This document shows positions 3,965 through 22,682 of a stretch of DNA of 35,910 bases, piece after piece (the stretch's first letter is position 1; every line of letters begins with the position of its first letter). Under the pieces are notes generated by a model. It saw only the letters and a list, made by a program, of their open reading frames with translations, made no database searches and was not told the DNA's origin. The stretch is from Promethearchaeota archaeon (GTDB lineage Archaea > Asgardarchaeota > Lokiarchaeia > Sigyniarchaeales > SOKP01): NCBI GenBank assembly GCA_016930515.1, contig JAFGGO010000186.1, positions 1 to 35,910 on the forward strand, written 5' to 3'. The position numbers were made by a program, and so were the translations under genes.

Positions 3965-6469
3965 ATGCAATTTGGATACTTTGACGACGATAAGAAGGAA
4001 TATGTGATAACAAGACCCGACACGCCTCTTCCGTGGATAAATTATCTAGGGTGCCAGAATTATTACGGCATAATCTCCAACACCGGGGGAGGATATTCCT
4101 TTTACAAGGACGCAAGGTTCCGAAGAATCACGAGATATCGATATAATAATGTTCCTAAGGACTTCGGAGGTCGCTACATCTATGTACGCGATAACAACAA
4201 TTCCGAATTTTGGTCACCCATGTGGCAACCAACTCGCAAGACTTTAGATCAATACAAATGCAGGCACGGTCTTAATTATTCAATCATTAGTTCCCAATAC
4301 AAAAATATTGAAATCAAAATCAAATATTTTGTTCCCTTAGGGGATGATCTCGAAATTTGGCAAGTAAAAATAAAAAATTTGAGAACTAAAAAATTTGAGT
4401 GTTCCTTATTTTCCTGTGTTGAATTTTGCTTGTGGGACGCCTACGACGATGCCATAAACTTTCAAAGGAATTTCAACACTTGCGAAATGGAAGTATCTAA
4501 CAACACAATCTACCATAAAACTGAATATAGAGAAAGAAGAAATCATTTTGCATTTTTTTCCTGTTCTGCACCAATCTCTGGTTTCGACACCAACCGGGAT
4601 TCGTTTTTAGGCCACTATAGGAGCTGGCAAGCTCCTATAGTGGTTGAAAATGGAAAATCATGCAATTCAATAGCTCACGGATGGTCTCCAATTGGTTCAC
4701 ATCATATAGAACTATCGTTAGATCCAAACGAAACAAAAGTGGTGATTTTTCTTCTTGGATATCACGAAAATAAACCCACTGAGAAATTTGAATCCCCTAA
4801 TTCTCAAGTGATTAATAAAAAATCGGTTCAAAAGGTAATTTCAAAATATCTAGACCCGATAAAAATAAAAACTGCATTTAAAGAACTTAAATCCTATTGG
4901 GCAACCTTACTTGAAACATTTACATTGGACTGTCCAAGCATTCACACAAATAGGATGGTAAATATTTGGAATCCATATCAATGCATGATAACATATAATT
5001 TGTCAAGATCGGCCTCGTTCTTTGAATCTGGAGTCTCAAGAGGTTTTGGGTTTCGAGATTCAAATCAAGATATATTGGGATTCGTACATTTAGATCCTCA
5101 AAGAACCAGGGCGAGAATTATAGATCTTGCTTCTACCCAACTCGAAAATGGTGGTGCGTATCATCAATACCAACCACTCACCAAGCGAGGCAATCACGAC
5201 ATTGGAAGCAATTTTAACGACGATCCACTTTGGTTAATTCTAAGCGTAGCCGCATACATTAAGGAGACGGGAGACTTGACCATTTTAAATGAACAAGTAC
5301 CATTTGAGAACAAACAAGGATCGGAAACTTCTCTTTTTGAACATTTAAAAAAAAGCGTGAAATATATCGACGAAAGGGTAGGTCCTCATGGATTGCCTCT
5401 CATTGGAAGAGCAGATTGGAACGATTGTCTCAATTTAAATTCTTACTCAACTGATCCCAACGAATCGTTCCAAACTGGAAAAACACTTTATGGTAACAAA
5501 GCAGAATCCGTTTTTATTGCTGCTTTATACATGATTGCAGCTCGAGAATTGAGTCAAATTTGTTCCTATATGGGATTGCACGAGCAAGTCAAGAACTATT
5601 GCGATAAAGCAGATAAGATGAATGGCGTTATCATGGATCACGGTTGGGATGGAGAATGGTTTCTTCGAGCTTACGACAACGAGGGAAAGAAAATTGGTTC
5701 TCAAAAATGCGAGGAAGGAAGAATATACATAGAGCCTCAAGGATTTTGCATCATGGCAGGTGTAGGTGTTGAAAACGGGCGCGCTATAAAAGCCTTAGAA
5801 GCAGTAAAAAAGAAATTGGCTTCAAAACACGGAATTATGCTACTTGATCCACCATATTCGCGCTATTATTTAAATTTAGGAGAAATATCATCATATCCTC
5901 CAGGATATAAGGAAAACGGTAGCATTTTTTGTCATACAAATCCTTGGATCATGATCGCTGAATCCATATTAGGAAATGGAGGTCGCGCTTTTGATTATTA
6001 TCTGCGAATAAATCCTTCTTATAGAGAAAATATAAGCGAAATACACCGATGTGAACCTTATATTTACGCGCAAACGATCGCAGGAGAAAGCGCAGCTACA
6101 TTTGGGGAGGCTAAAAATTCCTGGTTAACGGGAACTGCTGCTTGGAATTATGTGGCAATCGTGAATTGGATTCTTGGAATCCGTCCAACAAACAATGGCT
6201 TAAAGATTTATCCCGTTATTCCAAACGAGTGGAAGGGTTTCAAAGCTACTCGAATATTCCGGGGAGTGAAATATAACATTATTGTTGAACGAATTACACG
6301 AGGAAACCAAACAGAAATTTGCGTGAACGATTGTCCAATTGAAGGCAATATTATCCCTCTTCCAGAGAAGGGTGTTCAAGAAGTTCAAGTTATCGTAAAG
6401 CTATCAGAAAATTATAGTAACCAAGATTCAGTAAATTCCAAGAACGATTTAAAGCAATTTTCATTTTAA
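3965..6469 (+). CDS. cbpA: Cellobiose phosphorylase (GH94)
   Basis: MQFGYFDDDKKEYVITRPDTPLPWINYLG, GFRDSNQD, FNDDPLWLI, RADWNDCLNL (catalytic Asp, residue 487), YPPGYKENGSIFCH, EPYIYAQ, GEAKNSWLTGTAAW. Confidence 0.92.
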   Translation: MQFGYFDDDKKEYVITRPDTPLPWINYLGCQNYYGIISNTGGGYSFYKDARFRRITRYRYNNVPKDFGGRYIYVRDNNNSEFWSPMWQPTRKTLDQYKCRHGLNYSIISSQYKNIEIKIKYFVPLGDDLEIWQVKIKNLRTKKFECSLFSCVEFCLWDAYDDAINFQRNFNTCEMEVSNNTIYHKTEYRERRNHFAFFSCSAPISGFDTNRDSFLGHYRSWQAPIVVENGKSCNSIAHGWSPIGSHHIELSLDPNETKVVIFLLGYHENKPTEKFESPNSQVINKKSVQKVISKYLDPIKIKTAFKELKSYWATLLETFTLDCPSIHTNRMVNIWNPYQCMITYNLSRSASFFESGVSRGFGFRDSNQDILGFVHLDPQRTRARIIDLASTQLENGGAYHQYQPLTKRGNHDIGSNFNDDPLWLILSVAAYIKETGDLTILNEQVPFENKQGSETSLFEHLKKSVKYIDERVGPHGLPLIGRADWNDCLNLNSYSTDPNESFQTGKTLYGNKAESVFIAALYMIAARELSQICSYMGLHEQVKNYCDKADKMNGVIMDHGWDGEWFLRAYDNEGKKIGSQKCEEGRIYIEPQGFCIMAGVGVENGRAIKALEAVKKKLASKHGIMLLDPPYSRYYLNLGEISSYPPGYKENGSIFCHTNPWIMIAESILGNGGRAFDYYLRINPSYRENISEIHRCEPYIYAQTIAGESAATFGEAKNSWLTGTAAWNYVAIVNWILGIRPTNNGLKIYPVIPNEWKGFKATRIFRGVKYNIIVERITRGNQTEICVNDCPIEGNIIPLPEKGVQEVQVIVKLSENYSNQDSVNSKNDLKQFSF

Positions 6470-6616: not shown

Positions 6617-8593
6617 GTGAGCGAATCTTACGAAGTAGATGAGAATCAGACGAGATTTTTAAAAGATTTGGAAACATTATTTGGGAAGAGGATTCCCGTT
6701 AAAGACAAGATCTATTCCATCACTTTCGGCGTTCGAATTAAGGACGGAAATATAGTAGGATTGGGGTTGTATCGCACGGGTTTGAAGAGTCTTCCCGAAT
6801 CAATTTGTAGTTTGGAATATTTGGAAGAATTAGCTCTTGCTTATAATAAGCTAGAGGAATTACCAGAATGCATAGGAAATCTCAAAAATCTTGACGCCCT
6901 TGATCTGAACAAGAACAACCTATCCAAATTACCAGAATCGTTTGGACAGCTAATTAAATTAGACGAGTTGAAAATAGGAGACAACAATCTTGTTTCCCTT
7001 CCCGAATCGTTTGGAAATCTACATAATTTAAGGGAGTTGAATATAAGCGGAAATAAGTTAAATTCTCTTCCAAGTAGTTTTGGTTACCTTAAACGCCTGG
7101 AAAAGCTAAATCTAAGCGGAAATCCCCTCAAGAGCCTCCCCGAATCTCTTGGGAACCTTACTTCTTTAACAAAACTCAATATATCTGGACACCAACTAAA
7201 ACAAATTCCCGAGTCTCTTGTAAATCTAGTTTCTCTTGTGAAGCTAAATATGGACGGAAATACTAGCAAAATTGGTGGTTTAAAAAACCTTCCCGATTCA
7301 TTTGGAAACTTGAAAAGCACTCAAGAATTAAGCTTGCGACTGAATAATTTAACCCGATTACCCGAATCTTTCGGCAATCTCACTAATTTGCAGTCGCTTG
7401 ACCTCGAGGACAATTACATCGGAGCGCTTCCAGATTCGTTTGGAAATTTAAATTCACTTCAACAATTGAACTTGAATTACAACAGGTTATCGACCCTTCC
7501 TGAATCGTTTGGAACGCTTGAATCGCTCCAAGTTCTAAAAATAGACAAAAACACATTAATTTCCCTTCCGGAATCTTTTGGGAATTTATCGACTTTAATT
7601 TCTTTATCGTTAGGAGGAAACCAAATCACAACCCTACCCGAATCGTTTGGAAATTTAAACTCTCTCGAAGACGCTGATCTAAGTTGGAATTGGTTAGAGT
7701 ACCTCCCTGAATCGTTTGGAACCTTAAGAACCCTTAAAAGACTTAATCTGAGAACGAATCACTTGCTAGCTCTCCCAGATGCATTTCGAAACCTTGAAAC
7801 ATTAATAGAACTAGACTTGAGACACAACAAGTTCAACTCAATTCCCGAATCTTTATGGACATTGAATAATCTAAAAGAACTCGAACTTTACGGGAATCCT
7901 TGGATCGGGGAATCAAAAGAGATGGCTTCGAACTCCATGAGCGCAATTTTAGATTTTTGCCGTCAAAGAGCCTCAATTAACGCGTTTATTAGTCACGCAA
8001 TGGCAGACTTCGAAAGATTTCGGATAAAAGATATTTCAGATTATTTAGAAAAACAGGACGAGGTCTATCAAGCTTTTTATTGCGAGGCGGACTTAAAGGG
8101 CAACATCGACGCTTTCATGGAAGAGACAATCCCTAAATGCAAATTATTGTTATTTTTTGCGTCAAGAAAATCTTTATACGATTCCGAGGATTGCTCCCAC
8201 GAATTAGTTCTTGCTCGAAGCCACGACATCCAAATTGTTCCTATTAAGGGAAAAGATGTTGAATGGGAAGAACTATCGTCTGTTGGATTGAAAAGAGAGC
8301 TCGGATTTGAGTTTGACGAATTAAATTTCAACGAATTTTGCGTTCGATTATACGATTACATCAAGAAATTCAAGCGAGAAATCAATTTATTTGACAAGGA
8401 ACAAGCCGAATTGGACAGGCACGGGTTGAATATCAAGAACACCGTCTTGACCTTATTAGAATCGCAAGAGTTTAAAATTAGCGTCAAGAATAACCTCGAG
8501 CGATACAAAGAATTATTTAACCAACTGAATAGAAACGAGATCTCTCAATCGGAGTACTTTCGTAAGTTAGCAGGGATATTTTCAAATAAATAA
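6617..8593 (+). CDS. Leucine-rich repeat protein with C-terminal TIR domain
   Basis: GTG start. About 17 LRRs of 23 aa (LPESFGNLxxLxxLxLxxNxL) capped by GNPW, then AFISHA...LLLFFASRKSLYDSEDCSHEL...IQIVPI (TIR betaA, betaC, alphaC, betaD). No signal peptide, TM or P-loop. Confidence 0.88.
   Translation: MSESYEVDENQTRFLKDLETLFGKRIPVKDKIYSITFGVRIKDGNIVGLGLYRTGLKSLPESICSLEYLEELALAYNKLEELPECIGNLKNLDALDLNKNNLSKLPESFGQLIKLDELKIGDNNLVSLPESFGNLHNLRELNISGNKLNSLPSSFGYLKRLEKLNLSGNPLKSLPESLGNLTSLTKLNISGHQLKQIPESLVNLVSLVKLNMDGNTSKIGGLKNLPDSFGNLKSTQELSLRLNNLTRLPESFGNLTNLQSLDLEDNYIGALPDSFGNLNSLQQLNLNYNRLSTLPESFGTLESLQVLKIDKNTLISLPESFGNLSTLISLSLGGNQITTLPESFGNLNSLEDADLSWNWLEYLPESFGTLRTLKRLNLRTNHLLALPDAFRNLETLIELDLRHNKFNSIPESLWTLNNLKELELYGNPWIGESKEMASNSMSAILDFCRQRASINAFISHAMADFERFRIKDISDYLEKQDEVYQAFYCEADLKGNIDAFMEETIPKCKLLLFFASRKSLYDSEDCSHELVLARSHDIQIVPIKGKDVEWEELSSVGLKRELGFEFDELNFNEFCVRLYDYIKKFKREINLFDKEQAELDRHGLNIKNTVLTLLESQEFKISVKNNLERYKELFNQLNRNEISQSEYFRKLAGIFSNK
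6782..7903 (+). repeat. 69-bp period coding tandem repeat (LRR array)
   Basis: Recurrent CC(C/T/A)GAATCGTTTGGAA-type units. 16 (L/I)Pxx boxes, with one unit lengthened by about 5 aa (DGNTSKIGGL). Confidence 0.85.
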
Positions 8594-9075: not shown

Positions 9076-9618
9076 TTAGAAATTGATTTTGATCTTTGTA
9101 TTTTTTTTTCCTTCCCAAGATTTTTCTAGGAAACTCGAACCAACTGTTTTTTTGTCCGTACAAATTTCAAAAAATCTTTCGTTCCACCCCTTTATTAAAT
9201 AGTAGTAGTTTTCAAAATCGGGTTCTGAATCCGTATATGTTATAACAATCTCGTTGTCTGAAACGAAATTATAATCCATTTGGCTAAAGTTGAAAATCAT
9301 ATTATGAAAGCGTTTATATCTTTCCATTGCCAATTTAACATTTCCCTCAGCAACTATCTGTTTATAAAGGCTTTTCATCATTCCATCACAGAACTGTTTT
9401 CCCCATTTTACAACTATTTCTTTTTTACCTCTTGCTACCACATTAACAATGGCGTTCAAACCCTCTTTATAAGCCGCCAGAGGATACCATGCTGAACTTA
9501 ATATCCTTTGTTGTAAAAATTTTTTTGTTTCATCGGAAAGATTATCATAAGCTCCAGTCTTATTTGCTTTTATTACCTTGACAACTTCTTTAAACATTGA
9601 CCCTTTTACTTGTTTCAT
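9076..9618 (-). CDS. V4R/H-NOX-like small ligand-binding protein (DUF2378-like)
   Basis: VKGSMF...ILSSAWYP...WGKQF...YYLIKGWNERFFEI pattern of H-NOX/V4R-fold proteins. Divergent from the acyl-CoA ligase. GGGAG upstream of the ATG. Confidence 0.55.
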   Translation of the reverse strand: MKQVKGSMFKEVVKVIKANKTGAYDNLSDETKKFLQQRILSSAWYPLAAYKEGLNAIVNVVARGKKEIVVKWGKQFCDGMMKSLYKQIVAEGNVKLAMERYKRFHNMIFNFSQMDYNFVSDNEIVITYTDSEPDFENYYYLIKGWNERFFEICTDKKTVGSSFLEKSWEGKKNTKIKINF

Positions 9619-9676
9619 TCGACTCTATCTCCCTAATTTTTAAAAGAATTACCGTAAACCATTTAATTTATATTTG

Positions 9677-9778
9677 AAAAACTATAAATATATGAACATC
9701 ATTCATTTATACAAACTTAAGTAAATGATTTGTTGTTCATTTATACCAATCTAAGTATATGAATGGTAGTTCATTTAT
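9677..9778. promoter_or_regulatory. Three phased 34-bp units, each with an ATGA(A/T)-N5/6-TTCAT palindrome followed by TTAT; candidate TetR-family operator array
   Basis: TTCATTTAT occurs at 9702, 9736 and 9770 (exact 34-bp period). Units 2 and 3 are 27/34 identical. Confidence 0.7.
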
Positions 9779-10006
9779 TTAAAGATTGACTTATCAATAA
9801 AAAAGCTTAAGAACGATGAAACTTCATAGAAGCAATATTGAATGCGTATCTCGTTATAAAAACATTGAATTACCCAACACATCTAAAACCTATATTCAGT
9901 ACTACTATTCTAATACACTCTTAAATCTATATTCGAGATACGATTGAATTTACATATAAATCTAATAAATGAATATAATTTAAAAAAAATGAGGTAATGA
10001 AATAAC

Positions 10007-11794
10007 ATGAAAGAAGAATGGTTCAAACACCCAACGAATCTTGTCGATCTTCTTGAAGATTCTGTGAAAAAATTTGGAAAACGTAACTACTTTGGCACAA
10101 AAAATCCCAACGGTGATTACGAGTGGGTCACCTACGAACAGGTAGGTGCTCGCGTTGATAATCTCCGTGGAGGTTTAGCAAAGATTGGTTTGAAAAAGGG
10201 TGATACTGTAGGAGTTATAATAGATAATAGCGTGGAATGGGCGGTTATCGCATTTGCTACATATGGCATAAACGCTCGATTTGTTCCAATGTATGAAAAA
10301 GAATTAACAAAAGTTTGGCAATACATCGTTAAAGATAGCGGATTGCGATTCTTGTTTGTAGCGGATAATGAGATTTATGAGAAAATAAAAGGATTTAAGG
10401 AAGAAATAGGCACATTAGAAAAGATCTTCCTTATTCGAGGCGAAGGAGAAAGTAGCATGGCAGCTTTGGAAAAATTAGGAGAACAAAATCCAATTCCTTC
10501 GGTGAAACCCCATTGGAGCGATATTGCTGCAATCATTTATACTTCGGGAACCACGGGAGATCCAAAGGGAGTGCTCTTGAGTCACGGGAATTTCACATCC
10601 AATTTCCTATCCTCATATAAATTATTCCCAAATTTTGACGAAAACGATGTTACCTTCGGGATTTTGCCCTGGGCACACGTATTCGGTCAAACATCAGAAT
10701 TGTACTTGAATACGTATCGAGGCATGTCGTGTGGTTTGATGGATACTACCTTAACTTTAATGGAAGACATTGTAAAAGTGAAACCGACAGTATTAATGTC
10801 AGTTCCGAGAGTCTTTAATAACATCTACAACGGCATTCATTTAAAAATGAAGGCTGCGGGTCCTGCCGTGGAAGGTGCGTTTAATAAGGCAAAAGAAACT
10901 GCCAGGATATTAAGAGAAGGAGGAACTGTATCCGAGGAAGATAAAAAAGCAATGGAAGGCATGTTTCAAAACTTGCGCGGAATGTTCGGAGGTCGGCTTA
11001 GATTATCGTCGACGGGAGGTGCCACCATGAATCAGGAAATCGCACAATTTTTCATAGACCTTGGAATTCCTACTTACGATGGATACGGAATGACTGAAAC
11101 TTCTCCTGGTATCACGGCGAATTATCCCTCAGCAAATAAATTAGGTACAGTCGGACGGCCCTACGAAAATGTCACTGTTATCATTGACAAGTCACTCGTA
11201 GGCGAGGATAGCCAAGACGGCGAGATCATCTGTTATGGTCCAGGTGTGATGCAAGGATATCATAACAAGCCAAAAGAAACCGCAGAAGCCATGGTAGAAG
11301 ACCCGGTGTTAGGAAAGGGCGTTCGAACGGGTGATAGAGGATGGATCGATGAGGAAGGATTTTTACACATTACGGGCAGGTTTAAAGAGGAATACAAGCT
11401 CGAAAACGGAAAGTACGTACACCCCGCTTCCATCGAAGAAGCAATCAAGTTAAGCCCGCTCATAGCGAACGTGATGATCTATGGAGACGGTAAGCCTTTT
11501 AATGTCGGCCTCGTGGTTCCAGATCCCGTGATGTTGCCAATATTTGCTAATAAAATAGGAATCACTGAAAAGGATCTTTCAAAGCTGGTGGGAGATCCAA
11601 ATATTCAAAAACTCCTTGAAAATACAATCATGAACCAGTTGAAAGATGGTTTTGGAGGATATGAGATTCCTAAGAAACTCGTATTTACAGCAGAGGACTT
11701 TACTGTTGAAAATGGACTTCTCACGCAAACGATGAAATTAAAACGAAGAAATGTTCTCCAGAAATACGGGGATAAATTGAATGCTCTTTTTTAA
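10007..11794 (+). CDS. fadD: Long-chain fatty acid-CoA ligase (AMP-forming)
   Basis: IIYTSGTTGDPKG, LPWAHVF, SVPRVF, GYGMTETSP, RTGDRG, ITGRFKE, and FTVENGLLTQTMKLKR (C-terminus typical of long-chain ligases). GAGGT SD. Confidence 0.92.
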   Translation: MKEEWFKHPTNLVDLLEDSVKKFGKRNYFGTKNPNGDYEWVTYEQVGARVDNLRGGLAKIGLKKGDTVGVIIDNSVEWAVIAFATYGINARFVPMYEKELTKVWQYIVKDSGLRFLFVADNEIYEKIKGFKEEIGTLEKIFLIRGEGESSMAALEKLGEQNPIPSVKPHWSDIAAIIYTSGTTGDPKGVLLSHGNFTSNFLSSYKLFPNFDENDVTFGILPWAHVFGQTSELYLNTYRGMSCGLMDTTLTLMEDIVKVKPTVLMSVPRVFNNIYNGIHLKMKAAGPAVEGAFNKAKETARILREGGTVSEEDKKAMEGMFQNLRGMFGGRLRLSSTGGATMNQEIAQFFIDLGIPTYDGYGMTETSPGITANYPSANKLGTVGRPYENVTVIIDKSLVGEDSQDGEIICYGPGVMQGYHNKPKETAEAMVEDPVLGKGVRTGDRGWIDEEGFLHITGRFKEEYKLENGKYVHPASIEEAIKLSPLIANVMIYGDGKPFNVGLVVPDPVMLPIFANKIGITEKDLSKLVGDPNIQKLLENTIMNQLKDGFGGYEIPKKLVFTAEDFTVENGLLTQTMKLKRRNVLQKYGDKLNALF

Positions 11795-11845
11795 ATAATC
11801 CTTTTTTTTATATATTTTTAACATTAATTAAAATGGTGATATATT

Positions 11846-13174
11846 ATAGAATCGAAACAAAAAGGTTTAATATTTAAGATCCAAAGAACTGCTACTGACG
11901 ATGGCCCAGGCGTTCGCACGACGATCTTTTTTAATAAATGTCCTCTACATTGTGCATGGTGTGCTAATCCAGAATCAATTCCGAAAACACCTCAGTTACA
12001 ATGGTTGGATCATAAATGCATTGCTTGCAAGAGTTGTATCGATGCTTGCACTCAAGGAGCTTTGTTTTTTGAAGATGATGGCTTGCACATAATAAGGGAA
12101 AAATGCAATAGTTGTGGTGATTGCGAAGAAGCTTGCCCGAGTACGGCATTAACCTTAGTAGGCAAGTGGTGGAGCTCAGAAGATCTCTTTCACGATGTTG
12201 AGAAGGAAAAGATTTTTTTTGATAAGACGAAAGGAGGTATTACCGTTTCTGGGGGCGAACCCACCTTACAATCCGAATTTTTACTGGACTTTTTAAAATT
12301 GTGCAAGGAAAACGGCATTTCTACTGCACTAGACACTTGTGGATACGCTAGCCAACAAATCTATGAAAAATTAATGCCGTATGTTGACATTGTTCTCTTA
12401 GATTTAAAAGTGTTTGATTCTGATAAACACGAACAATTTACGGGCGTCCCTAATCAAACTATTTTGCGAAACGCAGAATGGATTTCGGATTACGTGAATC
12501 AACACGGAAAAAAGATATGGATTAGAACGCCCTTAATACCGAATTATACCGCCACGGACGATAATGTAAGAAAGATTGGAGAATTTATCGTCAATAATTT
12601 AAAAAACATACCAGAACAATGGGATTTACTAAGCTTTAATAAAATGTGTGAAGCTTCGTATTTTAGATTAGGTATATCGTGGATTCTTAAAGACGAACCA
12701 TTAATGACGAAAGAACAAATGGAACATTTTCAGGAAGTTGCCCAGAGCACTGGAGCTAAAAATGTAAAATGGTCTGGTTTAACTAAAAAAGAAGGAACGT
12801 CTCTAGATGAGGTAGAAAAAGAGGAAAAAAGATTATCCGCACAAGACGCTTTCGATCACATGGCAAAGGTGTTTAAAAAGGACGAGGCTTTAAAGTTGGA
12901 AGAAAAAGTCGTCATGCAATACAATGTTAGCGGCCCGGGAGGAGGCACCTGGCAACTTGTCCTCGAAAACGGGGAATATAAGATATCCAAAGGGGAATCA
13001 ATCAAGGAAGTCTCCTGTACGATGAGTTACGACAGTTTAGAGAGTTTCGTGGGGCTCAGGAATGGGACACTTGAGCCCATACAAGCCTTCATGTCAGGCA
13101 AGGTGAAATTCTCCGGAAATCAGGCAATTATTCAAGAAATAGGCAAGATTTTTCCACTTGGTAAGGGAAATTAA
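11846..13174 (+). CDS. Glycyl-radical enzyme activating enzyme (radical SAM, with ferredoxin insert) fused to a C-terminal SCP2 lipid-binding domain; 442 aa from a non-canonical ATA start
   Basis: The frame upstream of the track's start (12005) reads ESKQKGLIFKIQRTATDDGPGVRTTIFFNKCPLHCAWCANPES (CxxxCxxC). Two CxxCxxCxxxC motifs, GGITVSGGEP and LDTCG follow. From about 12833, MQYNVSGPGGGTWQL...GTLEPIQAFMSGKVKFSGN is SCP2. SD GGTGAT at 11835-11840. Confidence 0.9.
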   Translation: MESKQKGLIFKIQRTATDDGPGVRTTIFFNKCPLHCAWCANPESIPKTPQLQWLDHKCIACKSCIDACTQGALFFEDDGLHIIREKCNSCGDCEEACPSTALTLVGKWWSSEDLFHDVEKEKIFFDKTKGGITVSGGEPTLQSEFLLDFLKLCKENGISTALDTCGYASQQIYEKLMPYVDIVLLDLKVFDSDKHEQFTGVPNQTILRNAEWISDYVNQHGKKIWIRTPLIPNYTATDDNVRKIGEFIVNNLKNIPEQWDLLSFNKMCEASYFRLGISWILKDEPLMTKEQMEHFQEVAQSTGAKNVKWSGLTKKEGTSLDEVEKEEKRLSAQDAFDHMAKVFKKDEALKLEEKVVMQYNVSGPGGGTWQLVLENGEYKISKGESIKEVSCTMSYDSLESFVGLRNGTLEPIQAFMSGKVKFSGNQAIIQEIGKIFPLGKGN

Positions 13175-13180
13175 TAATTC

Positions 13181-13196
13181 TTTTCTTTTTTTTCTT
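13181..13196 (+). terminator. Oligo-T terminator after the activase gene
   Basis: TTTTCTTTTTTTTCTT directly after the stop codon, in a convergent intergenic region. Confidence 0.45.
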
Positions 13197-13435
13197 AATT
13201 TTTAAGCTTATCTGAGAATATTTAATAAAAATATTTGTGTTTGTAAATTAGTCGTAATATTTTATAGATGTTGTCTCTATAATCAAGGCGTCAATAGTAT
13301 AATTTATAATGTTTTCCTGATTGATTTTTTCTATATCAAACATATTCTATTTTCTAAAATAATATATAATAAAGTTAAAAAATAAAGATTAAAAAAAAAG
13401 AGTATATTTCCCGTTTTAAGGAAAAAAATACTCAC

Positions 13436-15898
13436 TTATATTTTATTAAATTCCGTTCGAGCAATGATATCGTCTTGAAGTTCTTTTCGAAGGTCAATGA
13501 AACGAGCAGAATACCCCGAAACCTTTACTGAGAGATCGGGATATTTTTCAGGATGAGCTTGGGCATCCTTTAAGGTTTCCGTGCCTACGGGGTTTATCTG
13601 AAGATTTCTACCACCTAACTCAAAAAAGGCTTCAACCATCGAAGCCATCTGATCTAATCCTTCTTCGGTTGATATCGTGCTAGGAGAGATTCTAACATTA
13701 AACGTGACTCCATTTGTCAAAAGAGCGTCCTTAGTGGCGTACGCCGCTGAACGGAAAGTCATTGTAAGACCGTTTTTTTCCGTTCCATTGACCGGAGAGG
13801 TTCCATTTGCCACGGGCTCACCATATACCCTTCCATCTGGCGTTGCACCTAACATTTTTCCTTCCATTGTATGCGTTCCAGAAGATACGCAACAAGGGTG
13901 ATAAATTCCATCACCGCCTCTTGCCTTGTATTGTCTCGTGATATCACACACTGTTTCTGCAACCCATTTTGCAAGCGCGTCAACCTTTTCATCGCCATTA
14001 CCGTATTTAGGTGCCTTGTTTTTAAGCATTTCTCGGATTTTTTCAGCGCCCTTAAAATTATTGCGAAGATGATTAACCAGTTCCCCCATTGTAAGTATTT
14101 TCTCTTCGAAGACTGCCCATTGTATCGCTGCTAAGGAATTGGCCACCGTAGCGATGCCTTGTGTACCCATTGGATTGTTGTTATAAATCGCTCCATTTCG
14201 AGTGCAGTCCAATCCTTTCTCTAAACAACCTTCAATGGTAGAAGAAAGCAGCGGTGACGGAAAGTAATCCGCAAACGCTTTATCCTTGAGTTCTGCTTTC
14301 TTCACGGTCAAATCTATCGCGTATTTCAATTGTTCTACAAAGGCATTCTTCACGTCCTCAAGAGAGGTAAAAGTGCTTGGATCGGGAGTTTTAAGGCCGA
14401 TAGATTTCCCTTTTGACATGAGGGTTCTTCCTTCATTTAGCGCCGTCATGAAAACAACTGAGAGCCAGATACCATTTCCTGCCGTATAAGAGAAGTCGTT
14501 TCCAGTACCATGAGGTTCCACGCATCCAACGATCGAATAATTCCTGGCATCTTCTAACGAATATCCCGTTTTATGAAGCTGCGGAATTAATATCTCGTCG
14601 TTATGGAACGCCATTCCCGAGGTATGTCTGAACGCTTCAACTGCTCTTTTAACGAAATCATGGGATGATTTTGAAGATATTCGTATGGATATGGTATTTA
14701 ACAAGCTTTTCACGTTTGATACTGCTTCTAAAAACAAGTAGGACACCTCGTTCGTTGCGTCCATCCCTTGTTTATCCACACCACCTATGGTCACATTGTT
14801 TTGTCCCGCAATGACGACGGTTGAGAGTTTCACCAAATACTCTTCAATTGCCTCGACTGCTTCTGCGTGAGTTAAACGCCCTTCTGCGATATCAGCCCGG
14901 TAGAAGGGAATGAGATATTGGTCCACGCGTCCTTGAGAGAAGATATTACCCTCACCATAGCTCATTTCCATCACGACATTAGTCATCCAAATCGCTTGAA
15001 TTGCTTCCATAAAGGTTCGTGGAGGAAGCGCTGGCACTCTCCTGGCGCGTTGGGCAATATCAATGAGATCCGACCTTCTTTCTTCTGATGCGGTCTTTGA
15101 CATTTCCATTGCCAAGTCTGCGTAGCGATTTGAATAATCGCAAACAGCTTTTGCGGTAATCTGAGCGGATTCAAGAAAATCCTTCCTGTATTCATAGTTC
15201 TCGTCGGTCTCCTTGAGTTTTGAAAGCTGTTCTACGGCCATCTTTTCAATACCCTTGAATCCCATTTGCAAGACACGCGGATATCCTGGAATTGTATGTC
15301 CTTGCATTCCCGCAAATGCTATAGAATTGGATCCCCCTACGGAGAACATGGGAATTTCAGGCACATCATCGTCTTTTTCGTCGATTAATCCTGCTTGTTT
15401 AAAATATTCGTTTTTTCTGGCATCTAAAGTCTTTCCCTTCCAGAAAGGAACGATTTCCTCTTTCATTTCCCTGAGTTCTTCTTCTGAAAGCGGTTTGTAC
15501 CTATCAAAAAGAGAATACATGGTGCGGAAGTACGCCTTGAGCTTTGGATCGATAGTATCATCAAGGAGAAAACCAAATACTCCGACTTTTCTTCCTTGTT
15601 CAATTTCCATGGGATCCGCTCTCACTCGACTCGATTTCTTACCCACGAGTAACTCGGCATCATCGATTCTGATAGGGATGCATCGCAAATATTCCTCCAA
15701 CGATTTAGCTTTTTTCATGCCGGGAGGTGCGTTTTCCATCTGCTTGTATATTCTGGTATAGCATCGTGCTCGTTCAAGATCGTACTCGAAAGGATGAGAT
15801 AGCATCTCGTCTCTAATCTTTCCAACCCTCTCAGAGGGGTTTCCTCGAAGAGGGGCTGCATTAAAATTTTGAACTACCATATGATAATAAACGACCAT
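13436..15898 (-). CDS. Glycyl radical enzyme, PFL2/eliminase-like, substrate unknown
   Basis: Cys loop YSIVGCVEPHG (C459) and Gly loop LSVKVSGYSARF (G795), plus SQGRVDQYL, APKYGN, GATPDGR and LQDDIIART. The true start may be the second ATG at 15880. Confidence 0.92.
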   Translation of the reverse strand: MVVYYHMVVQNFNAAPLRGNPSERVGKIRDEMLSHPFEYDLERARCYTRIYKQMENAPPGMKKAKSLEEYLRCIPIRIDDAELLVGKKSSRVRADPMEIEQGRKVGVFGFLLDDTIDPKLKAYFRTMYSLFDRYKPLSEEELREMKEEIVPFWKGKTLDARKNEYFKQAGLIDEKDDDVPEIPMFSVGGSNSIAFAGMQGHTIPGYPRVLQMGFKGIEKMAVEQLSKLKETDENYEYRKDFLESAQITAKAVCDYSNRYADLAMEMSKTASEERRSDLIDIAQRARRVPALPPRTFMEAIQAIWMTNVVMEMSYGEGNIFSQGRVDQYLIPFYRADIAEGRLTHAEAVEAIEEYLVKLSTVVIAGQNNVTIGGVDKQGMDATNEVSYLFLEAVSNVKSLLNTISIRISSKSSHDFVKRAVEAFRHTSGMAFHNDEILIPQLHKTGYSLEDARNYSIVGCVEPHGTGNDFSYTAGNGIWLSVVFMTALNEGRTLMSKGKSIGLKTPDPSTFTSLEDVKNAFVEQLKYAIDLTVKKAELKDKAFADYFPSPLLSSTIEGCLEKGLDCTRNGAIYNNNPMGTQGIATVANSLAAIQWAVFEEKILTMGELVNHLRNNFKGAEKIREMLKNKAPKYGNGDEKVDALAKWVAETVCDITRQYKARGGDGIYHPCCVSSGTHTMEGKMLGATPDGRVYGEPVANGTSPVNGTEKNGLTMTFRSAAYATKDALLTNGVTFNVRISPSTISTEEGLDQMASMVEAFFELGGRNLQINPVGTETLKDAQAHPEKYPDLSVKVSGYSARFIDLRKELQDDIIARTEFNKI

Positions 15899-16086: not shown

Positions 16087-17769
16087 TTAAACGCTTTTAT
16101 CCAAAGAACGAGGGGGATTAACGCACCATATAGAATGTCCTTCTTCTATTTTGATCTCATGGGGCATTTCTATTTCGCATTCTTTTGTACGCGCATCTGA
16201 AGAGCAACGTGGATTAAAAGCGCACCCTGACGGAGGATTTAAAGGACTGGGAATTTCTCCTTTAATCACATACTTTATTTCTTGGTCGTTCGGATCAATT
16301 TCTGAGCGCGAAGTAAAGAGTGCAATACTATAAGGGTGAGATAGGTTATTAAAGACTTGCTCTGTACTTCCAATTTCTACGAACTTGCCAAGATACATGA
16401 CTGCCACGCGATCTGCGATGTGATTCACAACGGCTAAATTATGAGTGATAAATAAAAATCCATACCCAAATTCCGCTTGTAAATCTTTTAGAAGATTGAG
16501 AATTTGTGCTTGAACGGAAACATCGAGCGCAGATGTGGGCTCGTCTAGAATGATTAAATCGGGATTACAAGCCAACGCTCTTGCTATGACTATTCTCTGC
16601 TTTTGACCACCAGAAAATTCGTGTGCATATCGATCCAGATGTTCGCGCTTCAAAGAGACTTTATCCAACAATCTTAACACGTACTTTCTTATTTCTGCTG
16701 TATTCGTGATACCAAGAAGATTTTTTAGTGGTTCGCCAATAATGTCAACTATTTTCATACGAGGATTCAACGAGGCGTCTGGATCTTGAAATACCATCTG
16801 AATTTTTTGTCTTAAATCACTCGGATATTCTTGAGGAACAGGATCACCCTTGAATAAGATTCCACCGCTTGTTTTTTCTATTAATCCTAAAATGGATTTA
16901 GCGATGGTAGTTTTTCCACATCCGCTTTCTCCTACCAATCCAACCGTTTCTCCCGTTCGAACGCTAAAAGATACGCCGTTTACTGCTTTTATAGCGCCAA
17001 CTTGTCTTTTTAGAACTCCTTTAAAGAGGGGATAATGGATGTGAAGATCTCTTACTTCAAGCAAGGTTTTACCTTTCTCGTGAACGGTTAAATCTCTTAA
17101 TTCTTGGAATTTTATTGTTTTATAAAAAATTTGTTTGATCAATTTTATGGAAACAATCGCAATAATTAAGCTAGTGATGGTATAAAGAAAAACATCATTC
17201 TCGAAAGATTTAGGGTTATAAATAAAAAGATACAATAACACCAAAATCGCTGGGGAAATACTGCTGAATGCGAATGTTCTTCTGAATTTAATTAATTGAA
17301 CTTTATCGCCCCAGTATACTAAAAAAACCGAAAGTCCTAAAAGAAAAATAAATGCAGCAAGAAATTGAAGCTTTATAATGTTTAAATCCGCATCTTCCGT
17401 AATCATTAATATGCTAAAAAGGCCCTGAATTGCGCTTAGAAATAACCAAATCACTAAAAGCACAACTTGGATCGAGCTAAAATACTTAAGCGAATCTAAC
17501 AGGTCTTGTTTGAAAATACTCCAAGAGATCGCAATGGCGGCAATTAAATTCAATGCACAAGGGATTACTTTAAAAAATAATTGGTCGCTAAAATTCAACA
17601 AAAGAATATATATCAAGATTGTATTTAAAAAAAACCATATGATATTGATTACTAACGAAATGACAAATGATCGTTCCCATTTCCTATAAACCAAGTATTT
17701 TTTCGTCATCACGAAACCAACAATGAATAAAATCGCGTTTACAATGATAATTTCAATTATATCAGTCAA
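16087..17769 (-). CDS. oppF: Opp/Dpp-type ABC ATPase (OppF-like) with an N-terminal multi-pass membrane domain
   Basis: GESGCGKT, QMVFQDP, FSGGQKQR, LIILDEPTSALD, FITH, and the C-terminal HPY/Cys motif (GCAFNPRC). The first ~215 aa are about 7 hydrophobic helices. TTG start with GGTGAT SD. Confidence 0.9.
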   Translation of the reverse strand: MTDIIEIIIVNAILFIVGFVMTKKYLVYRKWERSFVISLVINIIWFFLNTILIYILLLNFSDQLFFKVIPCALNLIAAIAISWSIFKQDLLDSLKYFSSIQVVLLVIWLFLSAIQGLFSILMITEDADLNIIKLQFLAAFIFLLGLSVFLVYWGDKVQLIKFRRTFAFSSISPAILVLLYLFIYNPKSFENDVFLYTITSLIIAIVSIKLIKQIFYKTIKFQELRDLTVHEKGKTLLEVRDLHIHYPLFKGVLKRQVGAIKAVNGVSFSVRTGETVGLVGESGCGKTTIAKSILGLIEKTSGGILFKGDPVPQEYPSDLRQKIQMVFQDPDASLNPRMKIVDIIGEPLKNLLGITNTAEIRKYVLRLLDKVSLKREHLDRYAHEFSGGQKQRIVIARALACNPDLIILDEPTSALDVSVQAQILNLLKDLQAEFGYGFLFITHNLAVVNHIADRVAVMYLGKFVEIGSTEQVFNNLSHPYSIALFTSRSEIDPNDQEIKYVIKGEIPSPLNPPSGCAFNPRCSSDARTKECEIEMPHEIKIEEGHSIWCVNPPRSLDKSV

Positions 17770-17797
17770 GATTACAGTATCACCTTTTATTTTGTTA

Positions 17798-19681
17798 TTA
17801 TTTCATATTTTCTGCTTTTTTCTTTGAAATTTCCGCCTGCTCTTTATATTGAGGATCGTATAGGTGGCAAGCCACTACATGTTGTTGATCGATGTGAATC
17901 CTTTTTGGATCAATTGAATCACAAGGTTCGAAACAATATTGACACCTTGGATGAAATCTACAACCTGAAGGAGGATAAATTAGGTTTGGTACCGTTCCAG
18001 GTATCACGGTAAGCTTGTCTTGTTTTTTCCCTACAACTGGAATTGAATTTATCAAGCCTTTTGTGTAGGGATGATATGAATGAGAAAATATTTCTTGAAT
18101 TTTACCATATTCAACAACAGAACCGCTGTACATTACCGCAACATGATCGCACATCTTTGAAATAATTCCGAGATCGTGAGAAATGAACAATATAGTTGTC
18201 TTGTATTTCTGATGGAGCTCTTTCATAAGTTTTAAGATCTGGTTTTGAATCGTAACATCTAAAGCGGTGGTAGGCTCGTCTGCTATCAAGAGTATAGGCC
18301 TACATGCCAAACCCATCGCTATTTGTACCCTTTGTCTCATTCCACCACTTAATTCGTGCGGATATCTTTCAATGATCACTTCGGGATGGGGGATATTTAA
18401 ATCTTTCAACAACTTGATACTCCACTCTCGAGCTATACTATAAATACTTTTATCATCATGTTTGGATGCTTCGACAAGTAGTTCGTCTTGCATGTGCAAC
18501 AAAAAGACTTCAGATATTTGATTGCCAATTTTAAAGACAGGATTCAGTGAATTAAGAGGATCTTGAAAAATCATGGTGATGTCTTTTCCTCGGTATTGTA
18601 ACATTTCCCTTTCCGTCTTTTTTAGCAGATCTTCTCCATTAAAAACAACGCTCCCTTTTTCTATCACACCCGGAGGGCGAATTAATCGAAGAACTGACAA
18701 GGCGCTCACGGATTTTCCACAACCCGTTTCACCTACCAAACCAAGAACTTCCCCTTCACGAATATCAAAAGAAACGCCTTCCAAGGCACGAACAACGCCT
18801 TCTTCCGTGTAAAAGTATGTCGTGAGATCCTGTACATCAAGAATTACTTGTTTATCTTCCGTTGTCATGTTGAACTTGCTCTCGCGTGAGGTTTGCTGTT
18901 GTTCCAAGAAAGATATTGATTGTTGGATCCTTTGGTTGCTTTTTGTTCTAGCTTTAGGCAAAAATATTTTCTTTAAAGATACGATTAACACGGTGGTGTA
19001 GATAACTGCTACAACGCAAAGTAAAACTCGAATGTCTTGTTGAAAGAGAACAATATTAAAGAGTCGTTTTAAATATAATTCAAAAACGATGAGTTGAATA
19101 GCCCAAATTCCATAAGAAACCATCCCTCCTGAATACATTGCGTATTTAAGGGGTTGTTTAGGAATCCGTTTTTCAATTGGAAAAAATTTATTAATCAAGA
19201 TAGTCAATAAAATATTAAATCCAACCGCAAAAGCAGCCCAATAAAGACCTAGCTCGAAAAGGTCGTATTCGTACATGGGAATCCCAAAGAGAGGAATCGT
19301 CAAGAATATACCCGCAATTATCCAAACTATGATTATGAAAAATTTTATTATTCTAAGAAAAGGACTGTTATAAAATTGTTCCTTGGTAATGGAACCAAAT
19401 TTAAAAACGAGTTTCTTATATAGAAAATAGAAGATGGTCAACATGACACCAAACACCAAAAAATCATTAACAAAAAGCACGAAAAAGTAGACATATCCCC
19501 ATAAAGTCTCGAACAAAAACCTAAATTCAATGCTTATTTGTAACAAGATGATTGAACATGCTGCCGAGCATCTTCTGTGCGGAATTTTCGGAATTTGCTT
19601 GTTTTCTGGAATTTGATTGTTGATGATTAACGAAACAATGTATAAAATGAACGCTGCAATTATTGAATCAATAATTGCCAT
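17798..19681 (-). CDS. oppD: Opp/Dpp-type ABC ATPase (OppD-like) with an N-terminal multi-pass membrane domain
   Basis: GETGCGKS, MIFQDP, YPHELSGGMRQR, LLIADEPTTALD, HPYT, GCRFHPRC. The first ~235 aa are about 7 hydrophobic helices. Confidence 0.9.
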   Translation of the reverse strand: MAIIDSIIAAFILYIVSLIINNQIPENKQIPKIPHRRCSAACSIILLQISIEFRFLFETLWGYVYFFVLFVNDFLVFGVMLTIFYFLYKKLVFKFGSITKEQFYNSPFLRIIKFFIIIVWIIAGIFLTIPLFGIPMYEYDLFELGLYWAAFAVGFNILLTILINKFFPIEKRIPKQPLKYAMYSGGMVSYGIWAIQLIVFELYLKRLFNIVLFQQDIRVLLCVVAVIYTTVLIVSLKKIFLPKARTKSNQRIQQSISFLEQQQTSRESKFNMTTEDKQVILDVQDLTTYFYTEEGVVRALEGVSFDIREGEVLGLVGETGCGKSVSALSVLRLIRPPGVIEKGSVVFNGEDLLKKTEREMLQYRGKDITMIFQDPLNSLNPVFKIGNQISEVFLLHMQDELLVEASKHDDKSIYSIAREWSIKLLKDLNIPHPEVIIERYPHELSGGMRQRVQIAMGLACRPILLIADEPTTALDVTIQNQILKLMKELHQKYKTTILFISHDLGIISKMCDHVAVMYSGSVVEYGKIQEIFSHSYHPYTKGLINSIPVVGKKQDKLTVIPGTVPNLIYPPSGCRFHPRCQYCFEPCDSIDPKRIHIDQQHVVACHLYDPQYKEQAEISKKKAENMK

Positions 19682-19745
19682 TCCGTAATTGAATGGATCG
19701 CCAATATAAAATAAAAATGAATTTGAAATTTTAATATCCCTCTTT

Positions 19746-20747
19746 TTATAATTTTAGTCGCGGATCTAAAGCGTCCCGCAAACCATCTCCTAATAATATA
19801 AATCCAATGGCCGTAATCGCAATAAACATTCCTGGAGCGATGGTAGCCATCAAGTTAGTGTAATTTAAATATTTAATTGTAGCAACATATATATCAGTCC
19901 CCCAACTCATAATAGTTGGGTCCGAAAAGCCTATAAATGCAATACCAGCCAGCCCAATTATAGCAACAGCTGCTCCACCAAAAAAAGCGATTAACATTGG
20001 TGAAAGAGTGTTTGGTACGATATGCTTGAACATTAGCTTGAATTTTTTCGCACCACCAACTTTTGCTGCTTGAATGAATTCAAGCTGTTTTACTTGCAAA
20101 ACAAGCGATCGCATTAATCTAATGTTGAACGGAATAAATAATATTCCAAAAATAATTAGTGTTGTAATTAAATCACCACTAATCATTGGCGCAAGAATAA
20201 TGATCAAGATCAAGGTGGGAAAAGCATACATCACATCAACAAAACGCATCATCAAGTAGTCAACAATTTTCCCAAAATAGGCAGAAATCGTTCCCAATAT
20301 GAGTCCCCCTCCAATTGAAATCGTGACGGGAATTATTGCTGTATAAAGGGTTGTTCGTGCGCCCCAAATGATTTTTGCTAACACATCATAACCCTCCTCT
20401 GCCGTTCCGAATGGATGTTCTAACGATGACGGGCTAAATGCTAATTCATATGATGGAAAAGGCGGAAATAGGTCCTGTAATGGATACTTAGTCAACCAAG
20501 GGGCAAAAATTCCCATGTAAACTATAAATAATATCATTATAATCCCAAGAATCGTTAAAGGCTTGAGAAGATGACGGAATAATCGCCTCTTTGATTTTAC
20601 CTTGTCTATTTCCCGTTCCCGTTTGGAAAATTCTGGATCCCGCCATCCAGGGATCAAATAAAACTTTAAAAATCGCAATACTTGGTTTTTCTTTTGATCT
20701 TGGGATTTATTTTTCTCCTCCACTTGTTGTGTAATTTCACTCATCAT
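19746..20747 (-). CDS. oppC: Opp/Dpp-type ABC permease (OppC-like)
   Basis: HPFGTAEEGYDV, EFIQAAKVGGA (EAA loop), KHIVPN, GDGLRDALDPR. Confidence 0.92.
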   Translation of the reverse strand: MMSEITQQVEEKNKSQDQKKNQVLRFLKFYLIPGWRDPEFSKREREIDKVKSKRRLFRHLLKPLTILGIIMILFIVYMGIFAPWLTKYPLQDLFPPFPSYELAFSPSSLEHPFGTAEEGYDVLAKIIWGARTTLYTAIIPVTISIGGGLILGTISAYFGKIVDYLMMRFVDVMYAFPTLILIIILAPMISGDLITTLIIFGILFIPFNIRLMRSLVLQVKQLEFIQAAKVGGAKKFKLMFKHIVPNTLSPMLIAFFGGAAVAIIGLAGIAFIGFSDPTIMSWGTDIYVATIKYLNYTNLMATIAPGMFIAITAIGFILLGDGLRDALDPRLKL

Positions 20748-20779
20748 TTTCGTTCGAATTCATTTTTTTTATTTTTAAT

Positions 20780-21844
20780 TTATTTGTAAGTAATCCTTGG
20801 ATCTATGATTGTATACATGACATCTGTAACTAAATTTCCAATGAGTATTATTATTGTACCAATAACTAAAAGACCATTAATTAGCAAATAATCCCCACCT
20901 AATATTGCCCATACCATAGTACGACCAAATCCATTGTACACAAATGTGACTTCAATGAAGAAAGAACCGAGCAAGGTCGTGGTGGTCCCTCCAATAATAA
21001 CATTGCTAACAGGAAGTAACGCATTGCGAAGAGCATGTTTATTAATGACATCACTTTCTTTAACACCTTTTGCCCGCGCAGTCCTTATATAGTCTTGATC
21101 TAGCACATCGAGCATGCTCGAGCGGGTTTGTCTTGCAATTGTGGCAAGCGAAACGAAAGTAACACACAATGCTGGAAGAATTAAATGCAATATTGTATCC
21201 CATAAAAATATTTGATCGTTATAGATAATACAGTCGATGAGGCGAAATCCAGTTGTAGGTGCGCCATCAGGAATGTTTAGTGCAAATCCTACAGAATTTG
21301 CTTTTTGTGTGGGGAAGTCCAAACTTTCTAGAGTAAAAAGAGGTAAAAGAAAGCCAAAAATAATTTTTACTATCGAACCAATCCAAAAAACTGGAAATCC
21401 TGCACCTAAAATGGCCACTGTCCTAATAGCTATATCTTTTCTAGTATCCTTATGGGTTGACGAAATGAGCCCCAATTTAACCGCAATGATTGGACTGAGA
21501 ATAAGGGGGATGATCATTAATTCTACGGTTCTTGGAAAGACTTGTGAGACAATCTGAAGAACTGGTGTTCCCGTAGTATCGATACCATTGGATATTCCCC
21601 AGTTTCCAGTAAAAAAATCTAAAAAATAATTTCCTAATTGTAGATACCATGGTGTATAATATCCAATCCGTTCTAATTCCATTTCGAGAAGATCAGGATA
21701 ATCCGCAAGGTTATTTGTAAAAGGATTAATAACCATGGCACGCGATAAGAAAAATGTCAATGTTAAGACGATCATTAACATTGGAAGCATCATCAATACT
21801 CTTTTTACGATGTATTTTATCATATTCGTTTGTTTCTTAGCCAA
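20780..21844 (-). CDS. oppB: Opp/Dpp-type ABC permease (OppB-like)
   Basis: YIVKRVL, HLILPAL, TRSSMLDVLDQDYIRTARAKG, KHALRNAL, DVMYTIIDPRI. Confidence 0.92.
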   Translation of the reverse strand: MAKKQTNMIKYIVKRVLMMLPMLMIVLTLTFFLSRAMVINPFTNNLADYPDLLEMELERIGYYTPWYLQLGNYFLDFFTGNWGISNGIDTTGTPVLQIVSQVFPRTVELMIIPLILSPIIAVKLGLISSTHKDTRKDIAIRTVAILGAGFPVFWIGSIVKIIFGFLLPLFTLESLDFPTQKANSVGFALNIPDGAPTTGFRLIDCIIYNDQIFLWDTILHLILPALCVTFVSLATIARQTRSSMLDVLDQDYIRTARAKGVKESDVINKHALRNALLPVSNVIIGGTTTTLLGSFFIEVTFVYNGFGRTMVWAILGGDYLLINGLLVIGTIIILIGNLVTDVMYTIIDPRITYK

Positions 21845-22570: not shown

Positions 22571-22631
22571 ATGTTTATCATTCGTTAATATTAAACTTTA
22601 GTAAATATGAACGTCATTCATTTATTTAAAG
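22571..22631. promoter_or_regulatory. Operator copy ATGAACGTCATTCATTTAT (22607-22625) plus a degenerate upstream copy (22571-22589)
   Basis: 22605-22625 matches 9690-9710 at 20/21 positions. TTCATTTATTTAAAG is identical at 9770-9784 and 22617-22631. Confidence 0.7.
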
Positions 22632-22682
22632 TTATAACTTTTCAACCAAACTAAAGTAAAATATATAGGAGTTTAATTAAAA

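Follow-up and report, generated by a model that had tools for sequence, protein, structure and literature searches.

A candidate catabolic regulon around an uncharacterised clade of glycyl-radical eliminases in Asgard archaea

What does a glycyl radical enzyme (GRE) act on when an acyl-CoA ligase is encoded close to it and its activating enzyme carries a lipid-binding SCP2 domain? This question is raised by a 35,910-nt stretch of DNA (the window), positions 1-35,910 of GenBank contig JAFGGO010000186.1, which is contig C64 of a 4.0-Mb Asgard/Promethearchaeota metagenome-assembled genome (MAG; genome label G000). An earlier note, made from the sequence letters, had described a new lipid-directed system of four genes that encode a small V4R/H-NOX-like protein, a long-chain acyl-CoA ligase, an activase-SCP2 fusion and an 820-amino acid (aa) GRE of the eliminase type. 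The four genes were all found at the coordinates and in the orientations described, and the list left out an Opp-type ATP-binding cassette (ABC) operon (16087-22418), a binding-protein gene (22683-24974) and a TetR gene (27484-28155); when the system is redrawn, the importer, the TetR gene and an operator shared by two promoters should be taken in. The reading favoured here, to which a probability of about 0.5 is given, is that these genes form a catabolic regulon around a member of an Asgard-wide uncharacterised clade of glycyl-radical 1,2-eliminases, which would be fed by the importer and whose product would pass through aldehyde and acid to a CoA thioester.

The GRE gene is located at 13436-15898 on the - strand. 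Its product was placed with respect to characterised enzymes by NCBIfam and Protein Data Bank (PDB) bit scores, and the phylogeny of the family was obtained with FastTree. The protein matches the Pfam models PFL-like (522 bits) and Gly_radical (84.3 bits, cut-off 22.2), and its top NCBIfam model is TIGR01774 (PFL2-3, the PFL2/glycerol dehydratase subfamily), with 548.1 bits and below the cut-off of 678.2. All the equivalog cut-offs were missed, with 425-481 bits versus 1000-1100 for the models of glycerol/propanediol dehydratase, HypD, CutC, HpsG/HpfG and IslA. The top-scoring equivalogs were HypD (481 versus 1100), the sulfopropanediol dehydratase HpsG (473 versus 1000) and the choline TMA-lyase CutC (442 versus 1050), less than half of the cut-off in each case. 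In a phmmer comparison with PDB sequences, the eliminases gave 339-406 bits (365-406 for the structures of CutC, glycerol dehydratase, HypD, propanediol dehydratase and A. fulgidus PFL2), versus 221 for the benzylsuccinate synthase alpha subunit (BSS-alpha), 212 for MasD and 106 for pyruvate formate-lyase (PFL). The single Cys in the Cys loop and the low PFL score of 106 bits led to the rejection of a PFL function.

The Cys loop of the GRE, GCVEP, contains C459 (14522-14524) and E461, and the Gly loop, VKVSGYS, contains the radical glycine G795 (13514-13516). An alignment of 71 family members has revealed that H201, C459, E461 and G795 are nearly invariant: C459 is present in all of them, E461 and G795 in 70/71 each, and C459, E461 and H201 are kept in 70-71 of the 71. 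These residues and the scores above point to an eliminase-type enzyme with a His/Glu pair as in dehydratases, which appears to match no characterised enzyme, in agreement with the assignment made in the earlier note. A further set of positions is conserved specifically in the family (N318-I319-F320, Q366-N367-N368, T472-A473, V671 and K792); K792, in the Gly loop, is found in 67/71 members, and other GREs have R at this position. The enzyme is a member of an Asgard-wide clade of eliminase-type (PFL2) GREs and has a pocket signature of its own. All five GREs of the genome are of the PFL2 type and lack an equivalog assignment. Contig C161 (51700-59400) has three more GRE genes, grouped with a TetR gene and a single activase gene; one of these GREs is 66% identical to the window GRE, and the other two, about 30% identical, are also without a match to a characterised equivalog.

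The substrate pocket was compared by alignment positions in the same 71 sequences, after checking the numbering of glycerol dehydratase (PDB 1r8w), whose C433 and E435 fall on GCVEP. The window GRE retains H164 of glycerol dehydratase, has N, I, A and V in place of H281, S282, D447 and Y640, respectively, and lacks three residues in the loop bearing Y339 (F395 in CutC). The HypD residues aligned with H201 and N318 are H160 and D278, the latter being changed to Asn, and D216 of CutC is changed to His. These positions appear less polar than in glycerol dehydratase and differ from those of every characterised member; the characterised members to our knowledge all act on small polar molecules. The earlier note had stated that tight grouping with HypD, CutC or diol dehydratases having intact substrate residues would speak against a lipid substrate; by bit scores and aligned residues, no such grouping was seen.

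Among the closest known enzymes are the B12-independent glycerol and 1,2-propanediol dehydratases (PDB 1r8w and 5i2a). The window GRE has in common with them the fold, the length, the GCVEP loop with catalytic Cys and Glu, the His164 equivalent, the Gly-radical domain at the C-terminus and a ferredoxin-like insert in the activase, and an aldehyde product is also likely given the aldehyde:ferredoxin oxidoreductase (AOR) and alcohol dehydrogenase (ADH) neighbours of its relatives. It differs from them in scoring only 375-399 bits, in the replaced pocket residues and the shorter Y339 loop, in the sequence KVSG instead of RVAG in the Gly loop, and in its locus, which contains an ABC importer and genes for TetR, ligase and SCP2 instead of microcompartment or dha/pdu genes.

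The neighbourhood of the GRE was compared in 58 loci (designated L plus a number), comprising 49 from species-representative genomes, further contigs and the other GRE loci of G000; their open reading frames (ORFs) were clustered and the cluster representatives annotated. The labels of the relatives read Promethearchaeota/Lokiarchaeota, and many loci are on contigs too short to judge whether a neighbour is present, so that the counts are to be read accordingly. ABC ATPases were found in 20 loci, TetR in 19, the activase in 39 and the binding-protein gene in 14. The recurrent Asgard layout consists of a divergent binding protein, a small membrane protein, two permeases, two ATPases and one to four tandem GREs, followed by a convergent activase and then a TetR gene. 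The adjacency of the ABC operon and the GRE is considered ancestral to the Asgard family because it is spread over several subclades of the FastTree phylogeny. The GRE adjoins the importer genes on the same strand in about 20 of the loci, usually with a TetR gene, and this Opp-type ABC importer, which had been overlooked, is the strongest and family-wide partner of the GRE.

In the window, the importer is encoded on the - strand by a unit that opens with a 193-aa multi-span membrane protein and two permeases of 333 and 354 aa (19746-22418; BPD_transp_1 was detected in the orthologues) and continues with two Opp-type ATPases of 560 and 627 aa (16087-19681), in which the Pfam domain ABC_tran starts at residues 264 and 300 and is followed by oligo_HPY. 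The GRE gene lies on the same strand, 188 nt after the second ATPase gene. In both ATPases, ABC_tran is preceded by about 230-300 additional N-terminal residues with many hydrophobic helices, and the orthologues of L020, L022 and L073 are equally long (566-645 aa); these extensions and the 193-aa protein that opens the operon seem unusual for an Opp/Dpp system. The binding protein (763 aa, 22683-24974, + strand) is a very divergent member of family 5 (Opp/Dpp-type; SBP_bac_5, E 5e-20), and a sequence search found no relative of it in the PDB. The TetR-family regulator (27484-28155, + strand; TetR_N) belongs to the cluster located beside the GRE or the activase in 19 loci.

Two copies of an operator-like motif, ATGAA-N5/6-TTCATTTAT, are located at 9692-9710 and 9759-9778 (span 9692-9778, + strand) between the H-NOX-fold gene and the ligase gene, the second of them running into a TATA-like TTTATTTAAA, and a third copy (22607-22625, + strand) is found between the ABC operon and the binding-protein gene, overlapping a TATA-like box about 55 nt ahead of the start codon of the latter. 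This core of 19-20 nt has three copies in the 4-Mb genome, all of them in the window locus, and TATGAACRTCATTCATTTAT occurs exactly twice in the window versus 0.05 expected, in these same two intergenic regions. The motif overlaps a + strand TATA-like box at 9770-9789 and at 22618-22637, which is consistent with a repressor that would control the ligase-activase unit and the binding-protein gene together; no clear operator copy was found at the promoter of the TetR gene itself. A related motif, AAATGAA-N5-GTTCAT, is present in L022 at the same two promoters, with two copies at the position orthologous to 22607-22625, in L065 in the interval that separates the ligase gene from the H-NOX-fold gene, and in L025 just ahead of the GRE. 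The shared operator is the best evidence for a tie between the ligase/activase-SCP2 unit and the transporter and GRE, and it provides a concrete candidate regulon.

The activase gene (11843-13174, + strand) codes for a GRE-activating radical-SAM enzyme of about 443 aa, whose C-terminal part is an SCP2 domain (about 12878-13153). The enzyme was recognised by TIGR02494 (302.6 bits, cut-off 174), and its best scores with activase models for specific enzymes were those of the HypD and HpsH types (270-289 bits). The ORF as called starts at TTG 12005, which would cut off the radical-SAM motif CxxxCxxC (CPLHCAWC, 11939-11962); this motif is in frame only from a non-canonical start, as frame analysis found no ATG, GTG or TTG ahead of it in the frame, which is open from 11840. 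At 11833-11848 the layout ATGGTGATATATTATAG comprises an out-of-frame ATG, an in-frame TGA and then ATT ATA. The start is most likely ATT 11843 or ATA 11846, and the gene was taken as 11843-13174 because L022 shares the TGA-TAT-ATT-ATA layout (14400-14425, - strand) and the L020 orthologue has an ATG (Met) at the position of ATT 11843.

The SCP2 domain (PF02036) gave 48.8 bits versus a cut-off of 21.3 over profile positions 13-100 of 101, and the genome scan agreed. Activase-SCP2 fusions are rare, only three having been found among 5.8 billion proteins. A hidden Markov model of this SCP2 subtype has also detected a stand-alone gene in L022, directly after a second GRE, and a tandem N-terminal pair on the AOR of L020, L023 and L073. 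All SCP2-bearing loci fall in the clade of the FastTree phylogeny nearest to the window GRE, where the domain therefore occurs in three architectures; L023 and L065 are from the same MAG, which has both an AOR-type and a ligase-type locus. A further SCP2 candidate, in L024, turned out to be a split activase. The AOR proteins with two tandem N-terminal SCP2 domains have 889-893 aa (L020, 15594-18263, - strand; L073, 1580-4261, + strand), and their genes are followed by ThiS-like and radical-SAM SPASM genes.

The closest outside relatives of this SCP2 domain are stand-alone SCP2 proteins and multi-SCP2 fusions whose partners are acyl-CoA ligase, thiolase-like/ChsH2 proteins and SDR-MaoC (MFE-2-like) enzymes. 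The window domain thus resembles the SCP2 domains fused to lipid enzymes (MFE-2/HSD17B4-like, SCPx thiolase, the C-terminal domain of alkyl sulfatase) both in its significant Pfam match and in these nearest relatives, and it differs from them in its partner, a radical-SAM GRE activase or, in sister genomes, an AOR. Literature searches on GREs together with SCP2, and on GREs with ether lipids, alkylglycerols and related compounds, found nothing relevant, and activase-SCP2 and SCP2-SCP2-AOR are architectures for which no description was found in the literature. What is new in this system is the accessory fusions on a GRE eliminase clade, the eliminase itself being of a known kind.

The ligase gene (10007-11794, + strand) encodes an AMP-forming acyl-CoA ligase of 595 aa and of the FadD/ACSL-like class (Pfam AMP-binding, E 3.7e-75). 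With the FadD-type models of NCBIfam it gave 160-220 bits versus cut-offs of 476-950 (FadD11 at the top, 220 versus 950); its closest PDB match is FadD-1 of A. fulgidus (3g7s, 140 bits), and feruloyl- and coumarate-CoA ligases are also among the matches (about 78-99 bits). A paralogue with 75% identity is found in contig C76, where its neighbours (enoyl-CoA hydratase, DNA methylase, acyltransferase and a BKACE gene) are uninformative. Divergent from the ligase gene is the gene for the small protein (180 aa, 9076-9618, - strand), which has no significant Pfam match (HNOB, E 0.06, 13.7 bits versus a cut-off of 25.5). Its AlphaFold2 model (pLDDT 87.7) has the H-NOX structure 2o09 as top Foldseek match (TM-score 0.70, E 3e-6); Bet3 and the phenol-sensing V4R-type domain of PoxR are matched more weakly. 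The invariant residues of its family are G6, W44, Y45, Y50, W72, G73, Y101, R103, F104, E151, K166 and S167; the conserved columns do not include the heme-binding motif YxSxR, and no more than about 9 of 13 aligned paralogues have His105. The family numbers at least 13 paralogues in the genome, found in tandem arrays (C85:3885-8018, C159:18415-19717 and C101:18014-21537) and 36-48% identical to the window copy. The fold of the model agrees with the H-NOX-like character proposed earlier, and the part given to this gene beside the GRE is weakened by its being one of at least 13.

The H-NOX-fold gene also adjoins the ligase gene in L022 and L065. The ligase, the activase-SCP2 fusion and the H-NOX-fold gene are found together only in the window and in these two loci, that is, in three closely related MAGs, and their co-occurrence is considered a single evolutionary event for this reason. 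The earlier note had asked whether the GRE/activase-SCP2/fadD neighbourhood is conserved across Asgard archaea and anaerobic lipid-degrading bacteria; it is kept in three of the 58 loci. The lipid-directed idea itself is partly supported: it gains from the less polar pocket, the genome-unique shared operator, also present in L022, and the three SCP2 architectures, and it loses from the restriction of the trio to these three loci and from the family-wide partnership with an ABC importer.

Other neighbours in the relatives point to an elimination that would yield an aldehyde, with subsequent oxidation or reduction and acyl-CoA chemistry. An AOR gene adjoins the activase in six loci (L020, L023, L073, L030, L036 and L038), accompanied in the first three by ThiS-like and radical-SAM SPASM genes and in the last three by Fe-ADH and thiolase genes. 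The Thor/Hermod loci contain a carboxylesterase, alpha/beta hydrolases, several Zn-ADHs and a protein of about 800 aa, and bacterial homologues with about 50% identity (L066 and L074) are found with acyl-CoA dehydrogenases (ACAD), enoyl-CoA hydratase, an NMO-type flavoprotein and alpha/beta hydrolases. The protein of about 800 aa (740-806 aa) is located beside the GRE and conserved in 12 loci (L069, 6476-8896, - strand; L073, 6642-9050, - strand; and ten others), and its features are a GGSGG motif and a C-terminal part that is PKD-like; no match was obtained in Pfam, or in the PDB by sequence or profile, its AlphaFold model was too poor for a fold search (pLDDT 53.5), and it may be a serine hydrolase. 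In L072 (8722-10546), from a close relative, a URO-D-type methyltransferase and a corrinoid (B12-binding) protein are encoded after the tandem GREs, a pair that resembles an O-demethylase module.

According to the favoured reading, the unusual Opp-type ABC system would import the substrate, the radical-SAM activase would install the glycyl radical on G795, and C459 would then abstract a hydrogen atom from the substrate, which would lose a neighbouring hydroxyl or other O-linked leaving group with E461 as the base and H201 as the acid. The resulting aldehyde would be taken on by the AOR or Fe-ADH encoded beside the activase in sister genomes, and in the window lineage the co-regulated ligase would capture the acid derived from it by forming a CoA thioester; the SCP2 domain would hold a poorly soluble substrate or intermediate. 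From this scheme of importer, GRE, AOR, ligase and SCP2, the substrate is probably an amphipathic hydroxylated compound, either an alcohol derived from lipids or esters or a hydrophobic aromatic one, rather than glycerol, choline or hydroxyproline (Hyp). A hydrophobic substrate is plausible, and a hydrophobic or amphipathic one is favoured because of the recurrence of SCP2, the nature of its relatives, the altered pocket positions and the acyl- and ester-type neighbours. More specifically, and as a tentative proposal that we consider unlikely in this narrow form, this could be the first GRE eliminase to act on an amphipathic lipid-derived alcohol, which SCP2 on the activase or the AOR would deliver and whose aldehyde and acid would end as acyl-CoA; monoalkyl- or monoacyl-glycerols, long-chain 1,2-diols and hydroxy-acyl compounds are the candidates for it.

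Several points weigh against the catabolic scheme with an amphipathic substrate. The TIGR01774 score (548) is under its cut-off (678), and the replacement of R by K in the Gly loop may have some effect. The glycerol-binding roles of the replaced dehydratase residues are presumed from the literature. The ligase and the SCP2 fusion are limited to a few close relatives and may be a lineage-specific add-on rather than core chemistry. Opp/Dpp-type importers usually carry peptides or oligosaccharides, and the list of neighbours has no background control, alpha/beta hydrolases and dehydrogenases being common genes.

An alternative explanation is that the GRE acts on a small polar solute supplied by the importer, such as an alcohol derived from peptides, amino acids or sugars, and that the ligase, the SCP2 domain and the H-NOX-like gene were recently added in this lineage and have no bearing on the substrate; SCP2 might, for instance, only anchor or regulate the activase. 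The importer is family-wide and the ligase or SCP2 is present in 3-6 of the 58 loci, the characterised eliminases all use small polar substrates, the HypD residues H160 and D278 have aligned counterparts in H201 and N318, and the ligase is not the only one of its kind in the genome, given the 75% identical paralogue. Such an explanation is nevertheless judged rather unlikely, since a conserved operator links the ligase/activase promoter to that of the transporter, SCP2 has been recruited in at least three separate ways in the GRE clade, the polar glycerol- and Hyp-binding positions are lost, and the AOR, ADH, thiolase, ACAD and esterase neighbours suit an aldehyde or acyl pathway. If the substrate is hydrophobic, it could also be aromatic and not a lipid, for instance a plant-polyphenol or lignin-derived ester or an aryl-glycerol ether, from which esterases would free an alcohol for C-O elimination by the GRE, with the ligase working as a feruloyl- or coumaroyl-CoA ligase. 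The ligase matches to such enzymes (about 78-99 bits) would fit, as would the URO-D and corrinoid-protein pair after the GREs of L072 and the protein of about 800 aa, with its GGSGG motif in 12 loci and language-model neighbours that carry PKD and, in part, Tannase domains in 16-30% of members (a lead only). We consider an aromatic substrate improbable: the protein of about 800 aa has no sequence match in Pfam or the PDB and a poor model, the relatives of the SCP2 domain keep company with beta-oxidation enzymes, and the 800-aa, URO-D and corrinoid genes are all outside the window.

Enzymes of this kind have been given a different function by Zhang et al. (2021), who assigned Asgard GREs 33-38% identical to A. 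fulgidus PflD to the putative alkyl-/benzylsuccinate synthases (Ass/Bss; PMC8163825), and the family is for this reason not unseen. The window GRE would then activate hydrocarbons by adding them to fumarate, in line with the proposal made for Hermodarchaeota GREs, with the ligase in the role of AssK and SCP2 binding the alkane. In addition to the published annotation, this is favoured by a Hermodarchaeota homologue 65% identical to the window GRE and by the presence of a ligase and a lipid-binding domain, which would suit alkane activation. It is very improbable in view of the scores of BSS-alpha and MasD (221 and 212 bits, versus 339-406 for eliminases), of the BssD activase model (167 bits versus a cut-off of 496, compared with 270-289 for the HypD and HpsH models), and of the GCVEP loop with the eliminase Glu in 70/71 members. 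Moreover, no genes for small beta or gamma subunits flank the GRE, the gaps of 260 and 188 nt having no credible ORF, and the context of importer, AOR and ADH is unlike that of ass/bss operons. These scores and the missing small-subunit ORFs speak against an assignment to the X-succinate synthases (BssA/AssA/MasD). The published label was based on identity of about 30% and on a single Cys (PMC8163825), and it is not supported for the window GRE because both features are common to all eliminases and true X-succinate synthases score far lower. The Asgard enzymes of that paper and the window GRE, which gives 365 bits with A. fulgidus PflD (PDB 2f3o), are probably of the same family, and they are alike in the single loop Cys and in an activase with two extra Cys-rich regions; in the available text of the paper, the published enzymes are presented without a link to an ABC importer, an SCP2 fusion or the operator.

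Enzymes of this clade are found widely among Asgard archaea, in as many as four tandem copies at one locus, and the window genome has five GREs; the only label published for the clade, that of alkylsuccinate synthase, is at odds with the sequence evidence. The substrate of the GRE would reveal what these relatives of eukaryotes consume in sediments. GRE eliminases are a main source of newly found anaerobic chemistry, and a lipid or other amphiphile as substrate would mean new chemistry for this enzyme family and a first anaerobic route for such compounds; if it were a lipid-derived alcohol, Asgard archaea would have an oxygen-independent route to break down ether or ester lipids in sediments.

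Farther from the GRE, on the other side of the H-NOX-fold gene, a 658-aa leucine-rich repeat (LRR) protein with a weak TIR_2 match is encoded next to a GH94 phosphorylase (6617-8593 and 3965-6469, respectively). The pairing of the LRR and H-NOX-fold genes is regarded as local synteny because an LRR homologue flanks the H-NOX-fold gene in L022 too.

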